DNA of 64,000 nucleotides. It comes from a virus. Its lineage: Duplodnaviria; Heunggongvirae; Uroviricota; Caudoviricetes. The position numbers and the translations under genes were made by a program. Positions 3,857 to 37,191 of the stretch are shown piece after piece (the first letter of the stretch is position 1; every line of letters starts with the position of its first letter). A model generated the notes under the pieces. The model was not told the origin of the DNA. It saw only the letters and a list, made by a program, of their open reading frames with translations, and ran no database searches. The DNA lies in the IMG/VR virus record IMGVR_UViG_3300038530_001701; one strand, written 5' to 3'.

Positions 3857-6436
3857 ATGAGCTTAATATCTTACTACAAGTTAGATGGAAATGCTTTAGA
3901 TGAATTAAATAGGCTTGATGGGTCTCCTAGTGGCGTTGTCTGGAGCAATGGACTCTCTGGACAATGCGCAGAGTTTGATGGTGTTAACGACCTTATTAGC
4001 TTTGGTAGTGGGCCTGATTTCTTTCCTCATAAGAATTTTTCACTTTCTATCTGGTTTAAATCTTTTGGGACAACACCGACTACAGGGACAACACCAGCTA
4101 TCTTTGGATTTACCTATGGTGTTCTATTAAGAGTTCTATCTAACAGACTCCAGTTTGGTATTGACACAGGCTCAGATTTTCAATACATATTCTCACCATC
4201 TACATATGATTTTTACAACGATGATACTTGGCACAATGTAATCATTTGTGCATCTGCCAATGAAATGAGAATGTATCTTGATGGTGAACTTGTAGGTTCT
4301 GCTGCTACAACGTGGGCTGGTAATACAAGATGGACGAACAGTGTTGTAATCGGAAGGGATTTAAACAATAGTAATTACTTCTTCCGTGGTCTAATGGATG
4401 ACTTTAGAATCTACGATCACGTTGTTTCTGAGAAAGAAGCAAAAGATATCTATAGATTAAAAGTTCTCCATAAACTTCAAGAAGAACTTGATAATACCGC
4501 TGATTCTGGTAATACAATTACAGTGCCAGACTCTCCAACTATCTTAGGTGATACATCAATAGAGTTCTGGTTTTACCCAACTAACAATTCCAGAAGACAG
4601 ACTATCTGGAATAAAGGGTATGGGGGTGAAGGGACAATTAACTTTGAACCTACTACCAACTATTTGAGATTTTACTCAGGCCCAAATGGCGATAATAGCT
4701 CTGGATATGTAGCAATAGAAAGCTCTACAGGAATTGCTTTGAATCAATGGCATCATGCAGTCATTGTAAGGGATATGAAAAACCAAACATGGCAATGGTA
4801 TCTTGATGGAGTTCCTGATATTCAAGAATCATTCTCGTTTACTTCTGTTGGTGAAACTACTTTTGACCTGACTATTGGTACTGGATATACATCTGATTTT
4901 GTAGGTAAATTGCGTGGAGTTAGACAATACGCACGAGTACTTACTGACAGTGAAGTTGAAGCTTTGTATACAACAGGGCTTTCTATTGATAATTTTGGCT
5001 CAATACATAGTAACTACTTTGTTGAGTCTGGTGTAGTAACTCCTAACATTCTTGATTATAAAACTTGGGTGGTTGGTACTTCCGGTTCACAAGTTGGATT
5101 TTCTGCAAACGGGTCTGCATCTGAAAGTTATATTGTAGAAGATGTTGACCCATTCAGTAAATCTATTCCTGTTTGGGAAGCTAGACCAGACTCTGTTTCT
5201 GGTGCTGACGGTGGTTGGAATGGTGACCTTTTCTCTGTGGACACTACCAAATTTTACAGATTCTCTGTATGGATTAGAAGAACAGTAGTTGGGAATGGTT
5301 CTGCATATTTAGGTCTGAGTGACACTGGTGGTACTGTATTACAAAGGGCTGATGGTAGTGCAAACTCTAACCCATATTTCTGGTCTGGTGGTTGGTCTTA
5401 TGGCGCTGGAGAGTGGATTCTGTTTGTAGGCCACGTATGGCCTGAAGGTTCTGGTTTTGGTGCGTTTCACCCAGACTCAGGTATTTACAGTGTATCTGGT
5501 GGAAGACTTGGAGATATTCAAAGAGATTTTGTATGGGTTCCTGAAGTTACAAATGCACTCCACAGAACTTATCTATATTACTCTACAGATACATCCACAA
5601 GACAACAGTGGTGTTACCCTAGGGTAGATGTTTTGGATGGAACAGAGCCTTCTATAGAAGCTTTGTTGGCTGGATTTGATTCTATTAACGGTGATCGTAT
5701 TGACGAGTTAGGTGCGTCTGATGTTCCTGACAATTTCGGTGTTAAATATGAGAAGACTAATGTTGGTGAATTAAATGAAGTTGGTACTTATCGAGGTCTT
5801 GGTTGGTACATTCCATTTAAATACTCTGCAAAGTCTTTCTCAGAAACTCCAAACGTAGTCACAGATGTTGAAGGAGCAACTATATTCAATGGTGAGTCGG
5901 TTCATTTCTCGAACACAACAAACGAGACTGTTGAAGTTTCTGATCTAACAAATATCTTAGGATCATCAACAACATCAGCTACATTCTCTGTATGGATTAA
6001 TAGAACTGCTTCTAACAATACTTACAACATGTTCATGGGACAGGGGACATTGTATTTCTCTTTCAGGTCATCTAACCAAATACTTTGGTCTATGCCTACA
6101 ACTGCTGGTCAACAGACATTAACTACATCACAAACATATTCAAGCAATGAATGGTTACATTGTGTATTTGTTATTGATGGTACAACAGCAAAGGTTTATG
6201 TAAATGGTGAACAGAAGGCATCAAGAACAGTAGATTCTCCTGTATCTATAGCTAATACATTTTCTTTTGGTGATGGTAGAGATAGTGCATGGTATCCGTT
6301 CCAAGGATATGTTAAAGATTTTAAAGTGTTTAATGTTTCATTATCTGGCGAAGAAGTGTATAATGAATACTCATCTAACTTAAAGGCTTCTATCAATAAG
6401 AATACAGCCTTTGCTAAAGAATTTATCGAGGTATAA
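3857..6436 (+). CDS. tail fibre / receptor-binding protein with concanavalin-A-like (LamG-type) lectin domains
   Basis: 859 aa; N-terminal segment resembles LamG/pentraxin-like jelly-roll domains; lies in the fibre gene block. Confidence 0.6.
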   Translation: MSLISYYKLDGNALDELNRLDGSPSGVVWSNGLSGQCAEFDGVNDLISFGSGPDFFPHKNFSLSIWFKSFGTTPTTGTTPAIFGFTYGVLLRVLSNRLQFGIDTGSDFQYIFSPSTYDFYNDDTWHNVIICASANEMRMYLDGELVGSAATTWAGNTRWTNSVVIGRDLNNSNYFFRGLMDDFRIYDHVVSEKEAKDIYRLKVLHKLQEELDNTADSGNTITVPDSPTILGDTSIEFWFYPTNNSRRQTIWNKGYGGEGTINFEPTTNYLRFYSGPNGDNSSGYVAIESSTGIALNQWHHAVIVRDMKNQTWQWYLDGVPDIQESFSFTSVGETTFDLTIGTGYTSDFVGKLRGVRQYARVLTDSEVEALYTTGLSIDNFGSIHSNYFVESGVVTPNILDYKTWVVGTSGSQVGFSANGSASESYIVEDVDPFSKSIPVWEARPDSVSGADGGWNGDLFSVDTTKFYRFSVWIRRTVVGNGSAYLGLSDTGGTVLQRADGSANSNPYFWSGGWSYGAGEWILFVGHVWPEGSGFGAFHPDSGIYSVSGGRLGDIQRDFVWVPEVTNALHRTYLYYSTDTSTRQQWCYPRVDVLDGTEPSIEALLAGFDSINGDRIDELGASDVPDNFGVKYEKTNVGELNEVGTYRGLGWYIPFKYSAKSFSETPNVVTDVEGATIFNGESVHFSNTTNETVEVSDLTNILGSSTTSATFSVWINRTASNNTYNMFMGQGTLYFSFRSSNQILWSMPTTAGQQTLTTSQTYSSNEWLHCVFVIDGTTAKVYVNGEQKASRTVDSPVSIANTFSFGDGRDSAWYPFQGYVKDFKVFNVSLSGEEVYNEYSSNLKASINKNTAFAKEFIEV

Positions 6437-31544: not shown

Positions 31545-32513
31545 ATGGAAAATGTGAAAAAAGGTTGGTCTACAGGTAAGATCGTTGGATGGGTAGGTGT
31601 CGGTATTATGTCCCTATTCCTTCTGGTTGCTGGTCTGAGTTCGTTCTATGTTCTTGAAGAATATGAGCGTGGTGTTGTTACTCGTCTCGGTAATGTAAGC
31701 CATGTGGCTACTCCCGGTCTGAATTGGAAGGTGCCATTCGTTGACTCTGTACATGTTGCCGATACTCGTGTAGAATCATTCTCACGTAACCAATCGGTAG
31801 GTACAAAGGATGGTCAGGCTTTTGAGAATGTGAACTTCACATTTACTCATAAAATCTTGACAGACAGTGATAGTATCCTTAAACTGTATGAACAGTTTGG
31901 GCCTAACTTTGACTACGAAGGTCGGGTACTTTCTGCACTAGCACTTGATCGAGCTAAGGCTGTAGTTGGTCAGTATCCTATGGAAGAATTCATGCCCAAA
32001 CGTGAAGAAATCCGTATGAAAGCTTTTAACGCTGTTCGTGAGGCTGCTGAACAATATGGCGTAACTGTTCAAGAAGTTCAATTGGCTGATGTGCAGTTCT
32101 CTAGCAAGTATAAGGCTCGTTTGGAACAGGTAGCTGCTGCTCGTGCAAGAGCTGAAGAAGCTAAACAGCAAGAACGTGAAGCTGCGTTTGTAGCTGCAAA
32201 AGAGGTTGAGCTTGCTCGTGGTCGTGCTGAAGCCAAAGAACGGGCTGCTGATGCTCAGGCTTATCAGACTCGTGTAGAGTCTACTGAGACTGCTGCTGCT
32301 ATTCAGCGAGAGGGTGAGGCCAAGGCTGCTGCTCTTAAGGCTCAGGCAAGCGTTCTGGCTAATTCTAAGGGACTTGTAGAGTTTACTCAGGCTGAAGCTA
32401 TGAAGAATTGGGATGGTAAGTTTAACCCCAACGTAGCAATGTTTGGCGGTGATGGTGGTGGAGCAGGTCTGCTTCCTTTCCTAAACGTGAGTGATCAAAT
32501 CTCAAAAAAGTAA
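31545..32513 (+). CDS. SPFH / band-7 (prohibitin-HflK-like) membrane protein with Ala-rich coiled-coil C-terminus
   Basis: N-terminal TM helix then YVLEEYERGVVTRLG..PGLNWKVPFVDSV matching SPFH-domain start; long Ala/Glu/Lys C-terminal coiled coil. Confidence 0.65.
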   Translation: MENVKKGWSTGKIVGWVGVGIMSLFLLVAGLSSFYVLEEYERGVVTRLGNVSHVATPGLNWKVPFVDSVHVADTRVESFSRNQSVGTKDGQAFENVNFTFTHKILTDSDSILKLYEQFGPNFDYEGRVLSALALDRAKAVVGQYPMEEFMPKREEIRMKAFNAVREAAEQYGVTVQEVQLADVQFSSKYKARLEQVAAARARAEEAKQQEREAAFVAAKEVELARGRAEAKERAADAQAYQTRVESTETAAAIQREGEAKAAALKAQASVLANSKGLVEFTQAEAMKNWDGKFNPNVAMFGGDGGGAGLLPFLNVSDQISKK

Positions 32514-33171: not shown

Positions 33172-33247
33172 TACTTGACTTAGGTTGCCTACAGCACTTA
33201 AAATACTTCAACGGTAAAGTAAGAGCAACCTGATAGTAGGAGATTAT

Positions 33248-33718
33248 ATGGAAATTGGTGATTTATTTGTTGCAACAAGACCTATTGTTAATGGATTAGG
33301 TTGTGTAAGTGCAGGTAAAGTCTTTAAGTTGGTAGAAATTCTTAAATCACAACCTTGGTATCATGCCCCCATCTACAGATTTGACCACAAAGATAGTCGT
33401 ATGGTATTCTCTACATTCTATCCTGAGAAGTGGTTTGAAGCTATGGGCGTTAACGCAAGTCAAGAACAAAAGAAGGAGAAAATTATGTACGAACAAATGA
33501 AACGAGCATTGAAATTGAAACGTGGTGAGCATATTGTTGGTAGTATCGACAAGCAAACTGGTTCGTTGAGCTTTTCAACTAATCCTAGTAACCACGGTAC
33601 AAGCTTCCACAAGGCTTTGGCAGAAGCTAAACGTCTTGCAGGTATTGAGACAGGTAAGAAATTTGTAGTAGTTGAAGTAAAAGCTATTGCATCTGCTGTC
33701 GATATCGTGGTAGAGTAA
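33248..33718 (+). CDS. hypothetical protein
   Basis: 156-aa ORF, RBS ggag. Confidence 0.45.
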   Translation: MEIGDLFVATRPIVNGLGCVSAGKVFKLVEILKSQPWYHAPIYRFDHKDSRMVFSTFYPEKWFEAMGVNASQEQKKEKIMYEQMKRALKLKRGEHIVGSIDKQTGSLSFSTNPSNHGTSFHKALAEAKRLAGIETGKKFVVVEVKAIASAVDIVVE

Positions 33719-33742
33719 CACAATCAAGTCCTCTACGGAGGG

Positions 33743-33864
33743 CTTATTGAAAGATAGCCTGTGGCCCTGCAAACTGACTACAAAACTTGAGCGGGGTATG
33801 TGGTTAGCTCTGAGTCAGCAGAGAAAGGTAGCCCAATCTGCCTCTCAGGCTGTCTTTCAATAAG
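33743..33864 (+). ncRNA. ~120-nt structured element closed by a 19-bp inverted repeat (cttattgaaagatagcctg / caggctgtctttcaataag)
   Basis: Near-perfect 19-bp IR (one G-U) enclosing GC-rich internal hairpins; non-coding; first element of the structured-RNA cluster. Confidence 0.3.
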
Positions 33865-33868
33865 TTTT

Positions 33869-33925
33869 AGGATGATTACAGCAATTTATACACTAGACTC
33901 TTAATCTAACCAGTATATTCATCCT
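33869..33925 (+). ncRNA. minimal hairpin carrying conserved UUACAGCAAU motif
   Basis: aggatga-...-tcatcct 7-bp closing helix; motif ttacagcaat immediately 3' of the 5' arm as in elements A-D. Confidence 0.35.
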
Positions 33926-34096
33926 GTATAAATAGACTTTACTTTTCAACTGCTTTAGGGTACTCTGAGAATCCTAATGGGAACCGTCAGAGATAGTTAG
34001 CATAGGTTTGAAGATTGATCACTTCAAGAACTACCAAGCCCTGACAAATTCTAGATAACTGTCGATAAAAACAAAGCAGTTGAAAAGTAAAGTCTT

Positions 34097-34192
34097 AGAA
34101 TGTGTCCAGCAAACTAAAAATTTTTCCGCCGAAATTGGAAACGAAGGGTTCGACTCCCCCGTACTAGGCTAGTGGTAGCCGAAAGACATTCT
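34097..34192 (+). ncRNA. Y-RNA-like / tRNA-mimic element A (degenerate)
   Basis: Closing helix agaatgt/acattct; variant motif gtccagcaaact; T-loop-like ttcgact; D-arm-like ggc-tagtggtag-cc. Confidence 0.4.
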
Positions 34193-34215
34193 GTTTAATA
34201 AATGAGGAGACAATC

Positions 34216-34674
34216 ATGAGTAAGATTCTTGAACAAATTAAAAAAGATCGCTTGCAAGCACGTAAAGATCGTGATACCTTTACTGCTGTAACACTGACAA
34301 CTCTGCTTGGTGAAGCATCACCTTCAGGTAACGATACTATCAGCGATAAGGAAGTTCAGAAAGTGATTGAAAAGTTTGCAAAGAACCAGCGTTCAATGCT
34401 TGCTCATGATCTTTCAACACTTCAGCGTAGTGAAATCAACCGAGAGTTGAAGATTTACGAAAAGTATTTGCCAAAGCAGTTGACAGAGGATGAGATTAAG
34501 CGTATTCTCTGCACTGAATACACAGTATATGTGGATGGAAATGGTAAAGGAAACCTTAACGTAGGCTCTGTCATGCGTTATCTGTCTAGCAACTATGCTG
34601 GACAATACGATGGTAAGGTGGCAAGTAAGGTTGCAAAAGAATTTGTTGACAGCATCGGCAACGGTGTGGTTTAA
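34216..34674 (+). CDS. hypothetical protein
   Basis: 152-aa ORF with strong RBS (aggag), between structured RNA elements. Confidence 0.45.
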   Translation: MSKILEQIKKDRLQARKDRDTFTAVTLTTLLGEASPSGNDTISDKEVQKVIEKFAKNQRSMLAHDLSTLQRSEINRELKIYEKYLPKQLTEDEIKRILCTEYTVYVDGNGKGNLNVGSVMRYLSSNYAGQYDGKVASKVAKEFVDSIGNGVV

Positions 34675-34682
34675 TAAGCTTT

Positions 34683-34790
34683 AGGTTCACTTACAGCAAT
34701 AACTTACTAAAGCCAATCGGGAGGGTTAGGTTCGATTCCTAAATAGGTAGTGTAGTGGTAGCACGCCCGACAAAAAGTAAATGTGAACCT
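34683..34790 (+). ncRNA. Y-RNA-like / tRNA-mimic element B
   Basis: 8-bp closing helix aggttcac/gtgaacct; bulge ttacagcaataa; ttact/agtaa helix; tcggg/cccga helix; canonical T-arm ttagg-TTCGATT-cctaa; D-arm gtg-tagtggtag-cac. Confidence 0.5.
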
Positions 34791-34820
34791 GCTCTAATTT
34801 AAACTAAGGAGGTATCAACC

Positions 34821-35150
34821 ATGAACGAACAAATAAGTCTAGAAGGTTTCAAGAAATTTGTTTCAGAACAACCTGAAGGTGAATCGATTGATCATTGGGG
34901 TGGTGGCTGGTGTTCTTGTGCAGTCGGTGCCTATGTTAAAACAACCCTTGGAAAACCTGTTGACAAATCTTGGGATGATGAGGTACAGTACGTATCAAAG
35001 TCGTTCATGAGAGACACTGATAAGGTTCCCTCTGGTTTAGAGAGACTTCTTGCAAACGCTGACCAAGCCACTTATAAGTGTCCAACATACGGAGCTTTGA
35101 ACAAACTACTGGAAAAATATACAGTAGTAGAGGAATTTGAAGTAAGTTAA
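34821..35150 (+). CDS. hypothetical protein
   Basis: 109-aa ORF with RBS aaggagg. Confidence 0.45.
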   Translation: MNEQISLEGFKKFVSEQPEGESIDHWGGGWCSCAVGAYVKTTLGKPVDKSWDDEVQYVSKSFMRDTDKVPSGLERLLANADQATYKCPTYGALNKLLEKYTVVEEFEVS

Positions 35151-35155
35151 GAATT

Positions 35156-35286
35156 AGATTGATTACAGCAATCCTACTATTCCATCCAAAGGACGAGACG
35201 CCGTGTTCGATTCCGGCACTCCCCGCCAATTAAACTATGTTATGGGGAGTTGGTGTAGTGGCAGCACACGTAAGTAATATCAATCT
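35156..35286 (+). ncRNA. Y-RNA-like / circularly permuted tRNA-like element C
   Basis: Closing helix agattgat/atcaatct; bulge tacagcaatcc; T-loop ttcgatt; acceptor-like 7/7 complementarity actcccc (3') ... ggggagt (5') with encoded discriminator+CCA (gCCA); D-arm gtg-tagtggcag-cac. Confidence 0.55.
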
Positions 35287-35305
35287 GTTGAACTAGGAGC
35301 TTATT

Positions 35306-35524
35306 ATGAAAAAATTGACTGTAGAGGTTTATGAAATTCACGAAAAACTGCCGGAATATGAGTGTGAGAATGTTTTGGTATTCACAAGTCATTTTCTAAA
35401 AGGTGTAGACGCATTTTATCAAGATGGCAAGTTTTGGTTGGATGATGAACTTGATACGTTTTTCAAGGAAGATACAATAATTGGTTGGTGTTATTACCCA
35501 AAAAAGGAACAAATTATTAAATAA
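35306..35524 (+). CDS. hypothetical protein
   Basis: 72-aa ORF with RBS. Confidence 0.4.
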   Translation: MKKLTVEVYEIHEKLPEYECENVLVFTSHFLKGVDAFYQDGKFWLDDELDTFFKEDTIIGWCYYPKKEQIIK

Positions 35525-35529
35525 GTTTT

Positions 35530-35658
35530 AGATTCACTACAGCAATTCTTACTAATGGGGACTGAAGGTCGCTGGTTCGAATCCAGCCCTGCCGCCCAAC
35601 TAACGATATGCGGCGGGTAGCTCAGTGGTAGAGCGTCAGTATAAAGTAATGTGAATCT
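35530..35658 (+). ncRNA. Y-RNA-like / circularly permuted tRNA-like element D (best-formed)
   Basis: Order 5'->3': closing helix agattcac (pairs gtgaatct at 35651); bulge tacagcaattc; ttact/agtaa; anticodon-stem-like actga (pairs tcagt at 35636); variable aggtc; perfect T-arm gctgg-TTCGAAT-ccagc; acceptor 3' cctgccg + c + CCA; 12-nt linker; acceptor 5' cggcggg; ta; D-arm gctc-agtggta-gagc. Confidence 0.6.
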
Positions 35659-35672
35659 GTTAAATAAAAGTT

Positions 35673-35705
35673 TGCTTACAGCACAAAATTTTGCTAAAGT
35701 AAGCA
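35673..35705 (+). ncRNA. small hairpin containing the TTACAGCA motif just upstream of the vWA gene RBS
   Basis: tgcttac-agcacaaaattttgctaaa-gtaagca, 7-bp stem. Confidence 0.3.
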
Positions 35706-35733
35706 TTATCGCAAACTGAAAGGAGGAAACAAT

Positions 35734-37146
35734 ATGTCTAGACTAATTAAAGGTATTCAGCAAGGCAACGCAACAGCACGTACTGCTAACGGTGCCAAAA
35801 CTCATGCAACCTCACACAATGCCTGTGTAGACTTGTTTGGTGTTGTTGGTTCAGCACGTAACATGGATAAGGGTACTCTGGTACGTATGTTTGATAACGC
35901 ATACGGTGAGAATCCTGAAGTAGCTGTACGTATCATGCAGTGGCTTCGTGATGTTCGTGGTGGTGCTGGTGAGCGTCAAGCTTTCCGTAACCTGTTCGCT
36001 GATCTGATCGAAAACCATCTGGAAATTGCCAAGCGTGTTGTGGTGAAAGTTCCTGAGCTTGGTCGTTGGGATGATGTTCTGGTTGCTGTTGGTACTCCTT
36101 TGGAGCCTGAAGCATTTGAACTGATTCGTGCAGGTCTGAACACACCTGAAACTGCTGGTCTCTGCGCTAAGTGGATGCCGCGTCAAGGTGAAGTAGCTTA
36201 CAAGCTGCGTAAAGCATTCTCTATGACTCCGAAAGGCTGGCGTAAGATGCTTGTAAGCCTCTCTAACACTGTTGAGCAGAAAATGTGTGCAAAGCAGTGG
36301 CATGAGATTGAGTACGGCAAACTGCCTTCTAAGGCTGCTGCAATGTACCAGAATGCATTCAAGCGTAACGACGAGGCACGTTACAACCGTTATGTAGAAG
36401 GTTTGCAAAAAGGTACTGAGAAAATCAATGCCGGTGCGATTTTCCCTCATGATGTTGTAGTGTCTGCACGTAAGGGTAATGATAAGGTTGCTACTGAACA
36501 GTGGAAGGCTCTGCCAAACTACATGGAAGAATCTGGTGAGAACATCTTGCCAATGATCGATGTATCTGGTAGTATGTCTTGGACTAATGTCGGTGGTAAT
36601 CCGAACCTGACTTGCCTTGACGTTGCTCTGGCTCTTGGTATCTATACCTCTGAGCGTATGGGTGGAATGTTTGCAAATCACTACATTTCATTCTCTGAGC
36701 GTCCTGTACTTGGTAAGGTTCAAGGTACTACCCTGAATAGCCGTGTACATAACGTAATGGGTAAGCATGTTGGTTACAGCACTAACTTCCAAGCTGCTTT
36801 TGAGTTGATTCTGCGAACAGCGGTTGACAACGATCTGGCACAGGAAGAAATGCCAACTATGATTCTGGCTCTGTCTGATATGGAATTTAACGCTGCTGGT
36901 CGTGGTAATACTAACTTCCAAGCAATCAAGCGTAAGTTCGAAAATGCAGGCTACAAGATGCCTAAGTTGGTTTTCTGGAATCTGAATGGTCGTGAAGGTA
37001 ACATGCCTGTCACTGTTCATGATTCAGGTACAGCACTGGTTAGCGGGTTCTCGCCTGCAATCCTGAAGTCTGTACTTTCAGCGAAAACTGTAACTCCGGT
37101 TGATATTATGCTTGACACGGTAATGGTTGATCGGTACAATTTCTAA
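35734..37146 (+). CDS. vWA-domain protein (MIDAS DVSGSM) with N-terminal alpha-helical domain; candidate Ro60/TROVE-like RNP protein
   Basis: 470 aa; MIDAS motif LPMIDVSGSMSW followed by vWA-like beta-alpha pattern; Ro60 = TROVE + vWA architecture; directly downstream of tRNA-mimic RNA cluster; strong RBS aaaggagg. Confidence 0.55.
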   Translation: MSRLIKGIQQGNATARTANGAKTHATSHNACVDLFGVVGSARNMDKGTLVRMFDNAYGENPEVAVRIMQWLRDVRGGAGERQAFRNLFADLIENHLEIAKRVVVKVPELGRWDDVLVAVGTPLEPEAFELIRAGLNTPETAGLCAKWMPRQGEVAYKLRKAFSMTPKGWRKMLVSLSNTVEQKMCAKQWHEIEYGKLPSKAAAMYQNAFKRNDEARYNRYVEGLQKGTEKINAGAIFPHDVVVSARKGNDKVATEQWKALPNYMEESGENILPMIDVSGSMSWTNVGGNPNLTCLDVALALGIYTSERMGGMFANHYISFSERPVLGKVQGTTLNSRVHNVMGKHVGYSTNFQAAFELILRTAVDNDLAQEEMPTMILALSDMEFNAAGRGNTNFQAIKRKFENAGYKMPKLVFWNLNGREGNMPVTVHDSGTALVSGFSPAILKSVLSAKTVTPVDIMLDTVMVDRYNF

Positions 37147-37153
37147 ACCTGAA

Positions 37154-37191
37154 GCCCTCTTGAGTAATTCAGGAGGGCATTTTTTCGTTTT
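37154..37191 (+). terminator. rho-independent terminator
   Basis: gccctc-ttgagtaattcag-gagggc hairpin + attttttcgtttt. Confidence 0.6.

Follow-up and report, generated by a model that had tools for sequence, protein, structure and literature searches.

Handle-bearing tRNA-like RNAs beside a Ro60-like protein gene of a tailed phage: a probable Y-RNA-like family

A genome fragment of a tailed phage (Caudoviricetes; IMG/VR record IMGVR_UViG_3300038530_001701), analysed here as a window of 64,000 nt, raises the question of what kind of RNA is encoded by two small elements, A (34097..34193, + strand, a 97-nt RNA module) and B (34683..34791, + strand, a 109-nt RNA module), that combine a closing helix and an internal loop with parts of a tRNA. 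An earlier note on this DNA had grouped them with two fuller elements, C and D, as paralogous RNAs in different states of elaboration, from which the elbow formed by T-loop and D-loop might be mapped as the essential part. A and B are real, conserved and covarying small phage RNA structures, and the RNAs that share their closing module have a modular build and a tight, strand-specific genomic linkage to a gene for a Ro60-like protein. We consider it probable, at roughly 60%, that A and B are Y-RNA-like RNAs of a large family tied to this Ro60-like (DUF2828/DUF7788) protein.

Layout of the array and architecture of elements A and B

Elements A and B belong to an array of seven same-strand elements (33182-35718, +) located 5' of a 470-aa DUF2828/DUF7788 gene. 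The module common to all of them, here called the handle, comprises (i) a 7-8-bp terminal helix (5'-AG.../...CU-3', then G) and (ii) an internal loop on the 5' side, N2-4-CAGCA(A), which is present on the 5' strand of all seven window elements and of the relatives. A composite handle rule applied to both strands of the window returns seven matches, all on the + strand in 33182-35718 and none elsewhere, and GGTTCGAWTCC, allowing at most one mismatch, is matched four times in the 64 kb, always on the + strand and within elements A to D, each match being followed by a TAGTGGTAG-like D loop.

The array opens with a handle-only element on the + strand (33182..33232; AGGTTGC / CTACAGCAC / ... / GCAACCT+G), which is overlapped by a promoter-like TTGACT-18-TAAAAT (33175-33204) and whose closing helix covaries in the related loci L203-L209 and L214. 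The second handle-only element (33869..33926, +; AGGATGA / TTACAGCAA / ... / TCATCCT+G) encloses one small inner hairpin, has no tRNA-like part and is represented by orthologs in L203, L204 and L206. Between A and B lies a 152-aa YqeY/GatB-tail-like ORF (34216..34674, +; PF09424, E 3e-15; phrog_1460), kept in the array of close relatives, and its product may, as a lead only, be a tRNA-elbow-binding partner. Element C (35156..35287, +; 94.7% identity in L203) comprises a handle (AGATTGA / TTACAGCAA / TCAATCT+G), a T arm, an acceptor hairpin of 7-8 bp and a D arm, and in element D (35530..35659, +) a complete permuted tRNA-like domain is mounted on the same handle; the acceptor loop starts G-CCA in C and C-CCA in D. 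The last handle-only element (35669..35718, +; AGTTTGC / TTACAGCAC / ... / GCAAACT+G) runs right up to the Shine-Dalgarno sequence that precedes the Ro60-like gene (35734..37146, +; 470 aa; Pfam DUF2828 and DUF7788; PHROG 850 'RNA-binding protein'), which is encoded on the same strand 1.5 kb downstream of A and 0.9 kb downstream of B. A terminator-like hairpin with a T run (37154..37178, +) follows this gene and likely marks where the transcription unit with the RNA array ends. A and B are presumably transcribed and accumulate. The relatives share, in synteny, a Band_7/SPFH gene that in the window occupies 31545-32513, some 1.6 kb 5' of the array.

ARAGORN predicts no tRNA gene in the window, Rfam gives no match in it at gathering score, and the Rfam tRNA model has none in 33600-35800 at E<=10. 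The miRNA and snoRNA matches obtained from Rfam at relaxed thresholds were rejected as chance matches to long hairpins, the sole credible one being that between D and YrlA. In deposited phages, DNA similarity extends over the Ro-like coding region only (64-70%) and leaves the RNA regions uncovered.

A sequence check located every motif that the earlier note had listed for A and B where that note had placed it. In element B, the closing helix (AGGTTCAC 34683-34690 / GTGAACCT 34783-34790) leads into the handle loop TTACAGCAATAA (34691-34702), an inner helix (TTACT 34704-34708 / AGTAA 34776-34780), the segment AAGCCAA (34710-34716) and an anticodon-stem-like helix (TCGGG 34717-34721 / CCCGA 34766-34770), which encloses a T arm and then a D arm, with neither an anticodon loop nor an acceptor end. 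The T arm (TTAGG-TTCGATT-CCTAA, 34726-34742) is joined to the D arm by the connector ATAGGTA (34743-34749) in place of an acceptor stem; the missing acceptor helix had been correctly recognised, and the joint, given as 9 nt, measures 7 nt. The last two connector bases (UA) correspond to U8-A9 of tRNA and are preceded by a 5-nt spacer. The D arm, described as GTG...CAC, is indeed present and is better parsed as GTGT-AGTGGTA-GCAC (34750-34764), with 4 bp and a 7-nt loop. B retains the tRNA core, namely U8, A9, A14, G18G19, A21 and the T-loop.

Element A is closed by the terminal helix AGAATGT (34097-34103) / ACATTCT (34186-34192), with the handle loop GTCCAGCAAACT at 34104-34115; the G after the terminal helix is conserved in both elements (34193 in A, 34791 in B). 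The interior comprises (i) hairpin 1 (TTCC/GGAA, 34124-34140), (ii) a T-loop hairpin (CGAAGGG-TTCGACT-CCCCCG, 34142-34161) of 3+2 bp, and (iii) a GG-loop hairpin (GGCTA-GTGG-TAGCC, 34167-34180) of 5 bp; GCCGAAAT falls inside a hairpin loop and is not kept in the orthologs. A keeps only the T-loop and GG-loop hairpins as tRNA-like features; an acceptor stem and a D arm of tRNA type are both missing. What had been read as its D arm is, in all seven orthologs, a 5-bp hairpin with a 3-5-nt loop holding GG, and an elbow contact in A is conjecture because this hairpin is not a tRNA D arm.

Conservation and covariation among related phages

The thermodynamic z-scores of the lone sequences (-0.47 for A, -0.34 for B) are unremarkable and no better than shuffles, so that support for the two structures comes from comparison and not from folding energy. 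A-type RNAs are found in seven loci, namely the window and L203, L205, L206, L207, L211 and L212. Among the six orthologs the closing helix takes four different forms, the stem of hairpin 1 four and that of the GG hairpin five. In an alignment whose helices were set by hand, and which is thus fitted to the structure, 100% of cells are paired and 12 of 21 pairs are compensatory, a result equalled by none of 500 shuffles, with slid controls at 44-52%.

Close orthologs of B occur in L203, L208 and L209, with a change from TCGGG/CCCGA to GCAGG/CCTGC, and a covariance model (R1) extends the acceptor-less B-type RNAs to the window and 14 further loci, the latter in phages with Ro-like proteins only ~50% identical to that of the window. 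The model gives 43 matches in 873 kb, all on the + strand except one in L211; the + strand is the gene strand in every locus that was oriented by its DUF2828 gene, L211 not being so oriented. Among B-type RNAs, 96.9% of cells are paired and 18 of 21 pairs are compensatory (96.1% and 19 of 21 in a largely independent set), the terminal helix being 99% paired with compensatory changes in 6-7 of its 7 pairs, and U8, A9, A14, G18, G19 and A21 are invariant. The T-to-D connectors, their lengths read from the covariance-model alignment, fall into two classes, either 5-12 nt and nearly always ending in UA, in the acceptor-less RNAs, or a hairpin of 6-8 bp. In searches by pattern, an A-specific one retrieved two IMG/VR loci, both of use here, and a B-specific one none, and a single metagenome scan for a T arm, a short linker and GTGTA returned five loci, three of which resemble ordinary tRNA 3' halves and none of which is a close B ortholog.

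These comparisons bear on how the series is to be read. Absence from close relatives, or arms that do not covary, had been named in the earlier note as what would count against the elements; they are present in relatives and their arms covary. The shared closing helix and internal loop of A to D, and the progressively less complete tRNA-like cores, are borne out as well. Different states of elaboration, taken as a progressive series, are not supported: A-type (in seven loci) and B-type (in the window and 14 further loci) are separate conserved lineages, and the series does not end at A but goes on below it, three window elements being handle-only. As for the elbow as the essential part, the T-loop and the GG loop do persist in A; the part common to the whole family, however, is the handle.

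The handle and the Ro60-like protein

The handle is the family-wide part because it is shared by members in which the elbow is absent, the elbow defining one subclass. The three window elements at 33182, 33869 and 35669, and many elsewhere, consist of a handle with no tRNA-like part, other phages bear non-tRNA RNAs of 200-270 nt on this handle, and the size of the distal module varies between one small hairpin, in handle-only elements of ~50-60 nt, and ~250 nt. The build is thus that of a Y RNA, with a terminal helix that pairs the two ends, an adjoining conserved internal loop and a variable distal module, the conserved part amounting to one helix and about 6 nt only. Ribozyme, riboswitch and CRISPR-type readings were set aside on account of this small conserved part and of the lack of Rfam matches.

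In 675 kb around 80 IMG/VR homologues of the DUF2828 gene, the handle rule finds 57 matches on the gene strand, 0 on the opposite strand, 0 in the reversed and 1 in the shuffled sequence; this stricter composite rule was used in place of a closure test permitting G-U pairs over a 275-nt range, which was too permissive, its control giving 38/113. The search for bulge plus T-loop in other genomes that the earlier note had proposed does find loci: among those retrieved solely by the motif 'TTACAGCAA-N15-45-T-loop', a DUF2828-family gene is present in 40 of 120 viral and 38 of 120 bacterial/MAG loci, the remaining two thirds having no such gene within the few kb fetched.

The Ro60-like nature of the neighbouring gene had escaped the earlier note. 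The AlphaFold2 model of the 470-aa protein (pLDDT 85.5) comprises a helical part (residues 30-260) followed by an α/β domain, and Ro60/Rsr structures take the first seven places among its PDB matches, each with a full-length alignment and with E values from 1e-7 to 8e-6. The query-normalised TM-scores are 0.58-0.64 for six vertebrate Ro60 chains and 0.36 for Deinococcus radiodurans Rsr (2nvo), and Ro60 structures are the only full-length PDB matches, at 11-16% identity. With an invariant DxSxS MIDAS motif (D276, S278, S280), the product of 35734-37146 displays the Ro60 architecture, a HEAT-repeat ring followed by a vWA domain with MIDAS. At the level of sequence, Pfam matches DUF2828 and DUF7788 only, TROVE being absent even at E<=10, and a PDB sequence search at E<=1 gives no match. 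At E<=1e-20 the DUF2828 family numbers at least 7,990 clusters, whose annotation does not go beyond 'RNA-binding protein' or DUF2828, and the Ro-like proteins of phages sharing A-/B-type RNAs are 50-83% identical to that of the window. We presume this protein to be the partner of the handle.

An anti-defence phenotype is reported for Bas63 gp130, a Ro60-like protein of a Felixounavirus, for which the authors guessed the existence of nearby Y RNAs, and gp130 alone, expressed in T7 or from a plasmid, counters the ppl system (PMC11482910). From its reported position upstream of a tRNA cluster, gp130 is probably a DUF2828 orthologue. At least its activity against ppl needs none of the phage's own RNAs, since the protein acts alone.

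Relation to known RNAs and alternative readings

To our knowledge, the Ro60/Y-RNA particles described so far come from animals, from certain bacteria and from a small number of phages, and all of them combine a TROVE protein with a stem of GGUCCGA or CGAA type. The present data point to a parallel, much larger Ro60-like branch, with a sequence-divergent protein, a different handle and very diverse RNA tops. Searches of the literature on DUF2828, on the motif sequence and on tRNA-like or Ro60 RNAs in Felix O1 did not find the RNA family described, and Rfam 15 holds no matching family, only D weakly matching YrlA.

Since the neighbouring gene is Ro60-like, the RNAs would belong to the world of Y RNAs and YrlA. 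Y RNAs comprise a terminal stem with a Ro-binding motif on its 5' strand and a variable effector part, which in YrlA is tRNA-like, and genomes usually encode several of them (PMC4201824; bioRxiv 10.1101/312249). YrlA is Rfam RF02553, described by Chen et al. in 2014 (PMC4201824), and its crystal structure is 6CU1 (bioRxiv 10.1101/312249). YrlA is encoded at most about 4 kb from a Ro60 ortholog and on its strand; the location of the array may be comparable, its same-strand neighbour having a predicted Ro60 fold while lying outside Pfam TROVE. Like YrlA, the RNAs of the array (i) are several per genome, (ii) pair their two ends in a terminal stem whose 5' strand bears a conserved motif, and (iii) present a permuted tRNA mimic of T arm, closed acceptor stem and D arm, with neither anticodon loop nor free CCA end. 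This last arrangement is found in C and D and is not displayed by A and B, B lacking any acceptor stem and A both an acceptor stem and a tRNA-type D arm. D matches RF02553 with 38.2 bits (E 2.7e-6), under the gathering score of 69, whereas A, B and likewise C have no match to it at E<=10. The 5' motif of YrlA, GNCGAAN0-1G, a proposed Rsr contact, is not the one conserved in the seven elements, which have N2-4-CAGCA(A) on the 5' strand instead, the GCCGAAAT of A being confined to a hairpin loop; CAGCA differs from both Ro-binding motifs of known Y RNAs, GGUCCGA and GNCGAAN0-1G. Further differences are a partner that is DUF2828/DUF7788 and not Pfam TROVE, and an array that intersperses seven handle elements with ORFs.

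The RYPER-type particles of metazoan and Deinococcus Y RNAs with Ro60/Rsr likewise join a stem for the Ro ring to a variable loop region that tethers a protein such as PNPase, and comprise paralogs with different effector parts (PMC4201824). Their binding stem has no sequence similarity to the handle, and the effectors here are tRNA cores, tiny hairpins and, elsewhere, RNAs of 200-270 nt. A phage parallel is Thermus phage phiLo, in which a Ro60 homologue, phiRo60, has Y-like RNAs, Yrl1 and Yrl2, immediately upstream, and in which binding is documented by EMSA and cryo-EM (PMC12135203); phiRo60 was recognised among UniProt proteins as homologous to Ro60, and its RNAs, unlike those of the window array, are only two, bear a CGAA motif and have no tRNA-like domain. 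The b7a-tRNA, a tRNA-like RNA predicted with Band-7 proteins and at times Ro/Rsr, recalls the Band_7/SPFH gene of the window; it is described as closely resembling authentic tRNA, which A and B do not, and no RtcB is seen in the conserved neighbourhood of the array. The tRNA-like domain of tmRNA, the TYMV TLS and mascRNA also use the T-loop/D-loop elbow as a surface for protein recognition outside translation, but their function depends on an acceptor end with CCA, of which A and B have none; compared with tRNA itself, there is neither a cloverleaf acceptor stem with a free 3' end nor an anticodon loop.

The stem and 5'-strand motif with which Y RNAs bind Ro60 suggest, by analogy, that the Ro-like ring protein encoded immediately 3' of the array would dock on the handle, a 'binding site' that draws on analogy and co-occurrence because CAGCA is unlike known Ro motifs and the protein fails TROVE. 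The variable effector module would be, in B, a tRNA core whose acceptor stem is swapped for a 5-nt spacer before U8-A9 and, in A, a T-loop hairpin with a short GG-presenting hairpin, both putatively displaying a tRNA-like T-loop/D-loop elbow. A and B may thereby draw elbow-reading proteins towards the Ro-like protein or compete for such readers, with the YqeY-like protein of the phage, modification enzymes and factors in tRNA-directed defence or repair as candidates. With no acceptor end or anticodon loop, they are presumably not substrates of RNase P, CCA addition or aminoacylation. Forming a natural deletion series of a tRNA mimic that is conserved across phages, A and B make the question of what the tRNA-like domain of Y RNAs binds directly testable.

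The alternative that survives best, although we regard it as rather unlikely, holds that the elements are cis-acting leaders, each handle serving, in the 5' UTR of the following ORF, as an operator or a processing site that controls its translation or stability, for example through binding of the Ro-like protein, autoregulation included, and not as part of a free-standing Y-like RNA. The placement of the elements fits such leaders: a strong Shine-Dalgarno sequence and ATG are found 10-30 nt 3' of each window element, a handle RNA ends exactly at that of the Ro-like gene in 27 of 71 distinct DUF2828 upstream regions versus 0 in the reversed control, and elements and ORFs apparently form one transcription unit ending at 37154-37178. 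They are hard to reconcile with the RNAs of L212 (3202-3512) and L211 (9589-9800), placed back-to-back with 8-10-nt spacers and no intervening ORF, with a Felixounavirus in which the RNAs stand among tRNA genes downstream of the Ro-like gene, or with a conserved tRNA core complete with tertiary-contact nucleotides, which an operator does not need. The cis-acting and Y-RNA-like roles are not mutually exclusive.

Processing punctuation, in which host RNases would cut the polycistronic transcript at the elements and release functionless pieces, is an unlikely account of the array. It accommodates the interleaving with ORFs, the N-CCA that in C and D stands exactly after the 7-nt acceptor 3' strand, as in tRNA precursors, and the cleavage of Mycobacterium smegmatis YrlA by RNase P (PMC4201824), but handle-only members have no tRNA features, and generic processing leaves both the single-stranded CAGCA and the linkage to one protein family unexplained.

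Less plausible still are stand-alone tRNA-mimic decoys that titrate away the host's nucleases of tRNA-directed defence or its tRNA-binding factors, with the Ro-like protein as a mere neighbour or stabiliser. Consistent with decoys, the tRNA core is conserved with its decoding parts missing, related phages carry tRNA clusters at the locus of the array with which the RNAs co-locate, and the Ro-like protein counters ppl without RNAs; however, handle-only and large non-tRNA RNAs have the same handle and the same gene linkage. The usual target of tRNA-directed defence nucleases (anticodon nucleases) is the anticodon loop, which A and B do not have.

It is very improbable that the elements are pseudogenes of tRNAs or permuted tRNAs in decay, left over from a tRNA cluster that lost its function and most degraded in A. 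In favour of this, the window has no intact tRNA gene, related phages do have tRNA clusters there, and the series D > C > B > A resembles erosion; such a reading is contradicted by the covariation, with compensatory changes in every helix of A- and B-type RNAs across phages whose Ro-like proteins are 50-83% identical to that of the window, by stems so divergent that recent copies are excluded, by a T-then-D order and closing handle that are a family design and not a rearranged tRNA, and by connectors that form two discrete classes and no continuum.

Within the preferred reading of A and B as Y-RNA-like RNAs, a bolder version can be put forward only tentatively: the CAGCA handle may be the universal docking adaptor of a second widespread Ro-like RNP system (DUF2828/phrog_850) with an interchangeable kit of effector RNAs, A and B being specialised elbow baits that take part in gp130-type anti-defence. 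If so, bacteria and phages would both use this system, the baits would recruit elbow-reading proteins of host or phage, such as the neighbouring YqeY-like protein or factors in tRNA-directed defence or repair, and the smallest tRNA surface that suffices for recruitment would be given by the series D, C, B, A and handle-only. The Felixounavirus protein, a presumed homologue, is already tied to evasion of defence (PMC11482910). In a sequenced Felixounavirus the handle RNAs are unannotated, one of them lying beneath two annotated hypothetical ORFs.

The CAGCA handle and its distribution

The tRNA-like elements A (34097-34192) and B (34683-34790) occupy intergenic gaps in a string of + strand genes and share with elements C and D a common handle, comprising a terminal helix of 7-8 bp (5'-AG.../...CU-3') and an N2-4-CAGCA loop in its 5' strand, with a conserved G immediately 3' of the closing helix in both A and B. 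A sequence check located every feature that an earlier note had listed for A and B, with some corrections to their description: (i) the T-to-D connector of B, given as 9 nt, measures 7 nt (ATAGGTA, 34743-34749), its final two bases corresponding to tRNA U8-A9; (ii) the D arm of B is present, its GTG/CAC parse being replaced by GTGT-AGTGGTA-GCAC; and (iii) the hairpin described as the D arm of A exists as a 5-bp stem with a GUGG loop. The T-loop word GGTTCGAWTCC (≤1 mismatch) occurs four times in the 64 kb, always on the + strand, within A-D and preceding a TAGTGGTAG-like D loop, which argues that the features of A and B are not due to chance. ARAGORN finds no tRNA in the window, and Rfam at curated thresholds returns no match there. 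The folding energies of A and B are no better than those of shuffles (z -0.47 and -0.34), so that the case depends on comparison.

The handle can be expressed as a rule comprising a 7-mer starting with AG, 2-4 nt, CAGCA and, within 25-260 nt, a complementary 7-mer with at most one G-U pair that ends in CU and is followed by G. Applied to both strands of the 64 kb, it selects exactly seven elements and nothing beyond them, all on the + strand: 33182-33232, 33869-33926, A, B, C (35156-35287), D (35530-35659) and 35669-35718. Across 675 kb around 80 IMG/VR homologues, whose proteins are 47-53% identical to the Ro-like protein encoded in the window, the rule gives 57 matches on the gene strand, one in shuffled sequence, and none on the opposite strand or in reversed sequence. 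The pattern TTACAGCAA-N15-45-GGTTCGAWTCC matches at least 120 viral and at least 120 bacterial or MAG contigs, with a DUF2828-family gene in 40 of the 120 viral loci listed, which are short, and in 38 of the 120 bacterial/MAG loci listed (23/34 among those showing the closing helix).

The interiors vary, including (i) small single hairpins (handle-only, ~50-60 nt), (ii) T-arm-only RNAs, (iii) full permuted tRNA-like domains, and (iv) structured RNAs of 200-270 nt; in 16 handle loci, Rfam 15 at the gathering score annotates only tRNAs. Within the family, the 200-270-nt RNAs make up a large subtype that is not tRNA-like. Many IMG/VR contigs have them upstream of a DUF2828 gene (L001, L002, L004, L005, L007, L009, L016, L035, L051, L057 and L069; e.g. 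L007 2995-3255); their handle has the form AGAGTGG-ATA-CAGCAAAC ... CCACTCTG, and their interior is conserved and GNRA-rich.

Covariation of A and B among relatives

Close relatives, to which the earlier note had looked for these elements and for covarying arms, contain both, and the helices of both covary. Orthologs of A occur in L203, L205, L206 and L207, whose Ro-like proteins are 83%, 79%, 72% and 70% identical to that of the window, as well as in the IMG/VR contigs L211 and L212. They preserve the core CGAAGGG-UUCGACU-CCCCCG, its outermost pair alternating between C-G and G-C, and display four closing helices, four hairpin-1 stems and five 5-bp stems of the last hairpin, all different, with GG always in the 3-5-nt loop of the latter. 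The helix-only alignment, parsed by hand and thus biased towards structure, has 100% of cells paired and 12 of 21 pairs compensatory (reached by 0/500 shuffles; slid controls, 44-52%). On this comparison, A is a conserved type of RNA and not a degenerate remnant.

The close orthologs of B (L203, L208, L209) retain both the T and D arms together with a short connector of 6-10 nt; the anticodon-stem-like helix changes from TCGGG/CCCGA to GCAGG/CCTGC and the closing helix is altered at two pairs. A covariance model built from seven B-type RNAs yields 43 matches in 873 kb, many of them directly upstream of distant DUF2828 genes, and all but one on the + strand. Wherever the DUF2828 gene set the orientation of a locus, this is the gene strand; the exception falls in L211, which is not so oriented. 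Alignment of the matches gives 96.9% pairing, with 18/21 pairs compensatory (0/500 shuffles; slid controls, 33-42%), and a second, largely independent set from motif-derived loci is 96.1% paired with 19/21 compensatory. U8, A9, A14, G18, G19, A21 and the T loop are all invariant in B-type RNAs, which also carry a type-specific AA-N-CCAA 5' of the anticodon-stem-like helix.

Two discrete classes of T-to-D connector occur: (i) 5-12 nt, nearly always ending in UA and without an acceptor stem, as in the B elements of the window, L203, L208/209, L003, L017, L023/24, L051, L015, L035, L031 and L004/57, and in A-type RNAs; and (ii) a 6-8-bp hairpin with a tetraloop or an 11-17-nt loop. The 7-nt connector of the window's B belongs to the first class, in agreement with the proposal that B has no acceptor helix.

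A Ro60-like neighbour and the possible role of A and B

A phage contig of ~86.6 kb matches the window, with an identical Ro-like protein, the same gene order and the rIIA/rIIB neighbourhood. The + strand gene string opens with a Band_7/SPFH gene (31545-32513) followed by small ORFs, continues with a YqeY/GatB-tail-like ORF between A and B (34216-34674) and two small ORFs, and reaches the Ro-like gene (35734-37146; 470 aa, Pfam DUF2828 and DUF7788), whose family PHROGs labels 'RNA-binding protein' (phrog_850). By sequence, the protein has no match in the PDB and none to Pfam TROVE even at E≤10. The sole full-length PDB matches of its AlphaFold2 model (pLDDT 85.5, pTM 0.86) are the Ro60 structures 1yvr, 2i91, 2nvo, 9nep, 9nf8 and 9nfa (E 1e-7 to 8e-6), with query-normalised TM-scores of 0.58-0.64 for vertebrate Ro60 chains and 0.36 for D. 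radiodurans Rsr (2nvo), and the vWA MIDAS motif DxSxS is invariant across 38 homologues. As modelled, the protein matches the Ro60 fold, though failing TROVE at the sequence level. Element D (35548-35658) matches Rfam YrlA at relaxed thresholds (38.2 bits, E 2.7e-6; gathering score, 69), YrlA being a tRNA-like bacterial Y RNA. The elements are thus neighbours of a Ro60-like gene, and proximity to a Ro60-type gene is what defines Y RNAs (PMC4201824).

The A/B-family RNAs are conserved, covarying, modular and strand-specifically tied in the genome to the gene of a Ro60-fold protein. With a probability of roughly 0.6, we read A and B as Y-RNA-like RNAs. By analogy with Y RNAs (PMC4201824, PMC12135203), the terminal helix and the CAGCA loop would dock the Ro-like protein and the variable top would act as effector module; B would display the tRNA elbow and core without acceptor end or anticodon, and A the T loop and GG loop only. 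In contrast to YrlA of M. smegmatis, an RNase P substrate (PMC4201824), neither is expected to be cut by RNase P or to receive CCA. The family resembles YrlA in apparent function, but the elements fail its defining tests (Rfam score, GNCGAA motif), and A and B lack its acceptor-like stem. In the literature found, whose incomplete coverage leaves room for a prior mention, the CAGCA handle, DUF2828-associated RNAs and acceptor-less forms are not described.

A handle RNA, in a 33-55-nt minimal or a B-type tRNA-like form, directly abuts the Shine-Dalgarno sequence preceding the Ro-like gene (...CUG followed by AAGGAG...) in 27 of 71 distinct upstream regions from L001-L080 and L203-L215 (reversed control, 0), as does the window element 35669-35718 (region 35669-35733), and may serve autoregulation of this gene. 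Such placement fits elements that are cis-acting leaders or operators, a possible but rather unlikely role given the ORF-less tandem arrays in L211/L212 and the placement among tRNA genes. Processing punctuation, into which C and D fit but the acceptor-less A and B do not, is improbable; Ro-independent decoys, which leave the handle-only members unexplained, are more improbable still; and decay into pseudogenes, contradicted by the covariation, is the least probable.

For A and B as Y-RNA-like RNAs, the YqeY-like ORF offers a lead to an elbow partner: the GatB tail/YqeY domain is a tRNA-binding module, and synteny of this ORF is kept in six close relatives (L203, L204, L205, L207, L208, L209). 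The Band_7/SPFH gene is likewise syntenic with the RNA array in close relatives, and a preprint (bioRxiv 10.1101/312249) summarises predictions that Band-7 proteins act together with tRNA-like RNAs and Ro; the conserved neighbourhood shows no RtcB ligase. In L204 and L205 (both 3972-4490), the space immediately before the Ro-like gene, filled by C- or B-type RNAs in other relatives, is taken by an HNH endonuclease ORF, suggesting array turnover via mobile endonuclease insertion.

Other structures in the array and the Felixounavirus link

In C (35215-35225, ACTCCCC-G-CCA) and D (35585-35595, CCTGCCG-C-CCA), the acceptor loop opens with N-CCA, placed exactly after the 7-nt 3' strand of the acceptor stem, an arrangement like that of a permuted tRNA gene and shared by the C-/D-type RNAs of L203, L205, L206, L207 and L213. 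NCCA occupies this position in 24 of 128 T-arm-bearing handle RNAs against ~2 expected, suggesting that some members are cut in the loop to expose a CCA end.

Element 33182-33232 overlaps a sigma-70-like promoter match, TTGACT-18-TAAAAT (33175-33204); its orthologs keep the TTGAC box upstream, yet their closing helix covaries, and the site may act as both promoter and RNA, unless its resemblance to a promoter is coincidental. Between two handle RNAs, 33930-34096 (+, 167 nt) adopts a multi-branched fold with a 23-bp perfect closing helix (MFE -56.2 kcal/mol, z -7.8) and is 96% identical to L203 2827-2980, above the conservation of the genes beside it; a CAGCA handle is absent, and Rfam gives no credible match. 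Directly 3' of the hairpin ending ORF 33248-33718, 33748-33862 (+) has a 14-bp closing helix (z -4.5); relatives carry other long-stem sequences in this slot, each with a terminal ...AATAAG tail, and L214 has the inner GGTAGCCCAATCTGCCTC in common with the window. In the slot of 33740-34096, L206 (2358-3013) and L209 (2790-3280) contain apparent tRNA genes with encoded CCA and 50-150-nt insertions after the anticodon region (e.g. L209 3065-3186, Rfam tRNA 36.4 bits), the window being without any tRNA. A further Rfam tRNA match, L209 3780-3901 (32.5 bits, above the gathering score), is false, combining the D arm of a permuted element with the T arm of the element that follows, and illustrates how such arrays can be mis-annotated as tRNAs.

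Bas63 gp130, a Ro60-like protein of a Felixounavirus, acts against the ppl defence system, and the authors of that study surmised that some 'tRNA genes' close by could encode Y RNAs (PMC11482910); because it lies upstream of the tRNA cluster, we infer that gp130 is the DUF2828 orthologue. Since gp130 alone carries the anti-ppl effect into T7 (PMC11482910), strict RNA dependence is disfavoured. The Felixounavirus Escherichia phage vB_EcoM_E9 (PP886229) contains unannotated handle RNAs at 5207-5459 and 5895-6021 (closing helices AGACCAA/TTGGTCT and AGACCGT/ACGGTCT), inside the tRNA cluster and just downstream of an 'RNA-binding protein', a DUF2828 homologue. Two hypothetical CDS in the annotation (5853-6002 and 5989-6165), probably miscalls, overlap one tRNA-like member.
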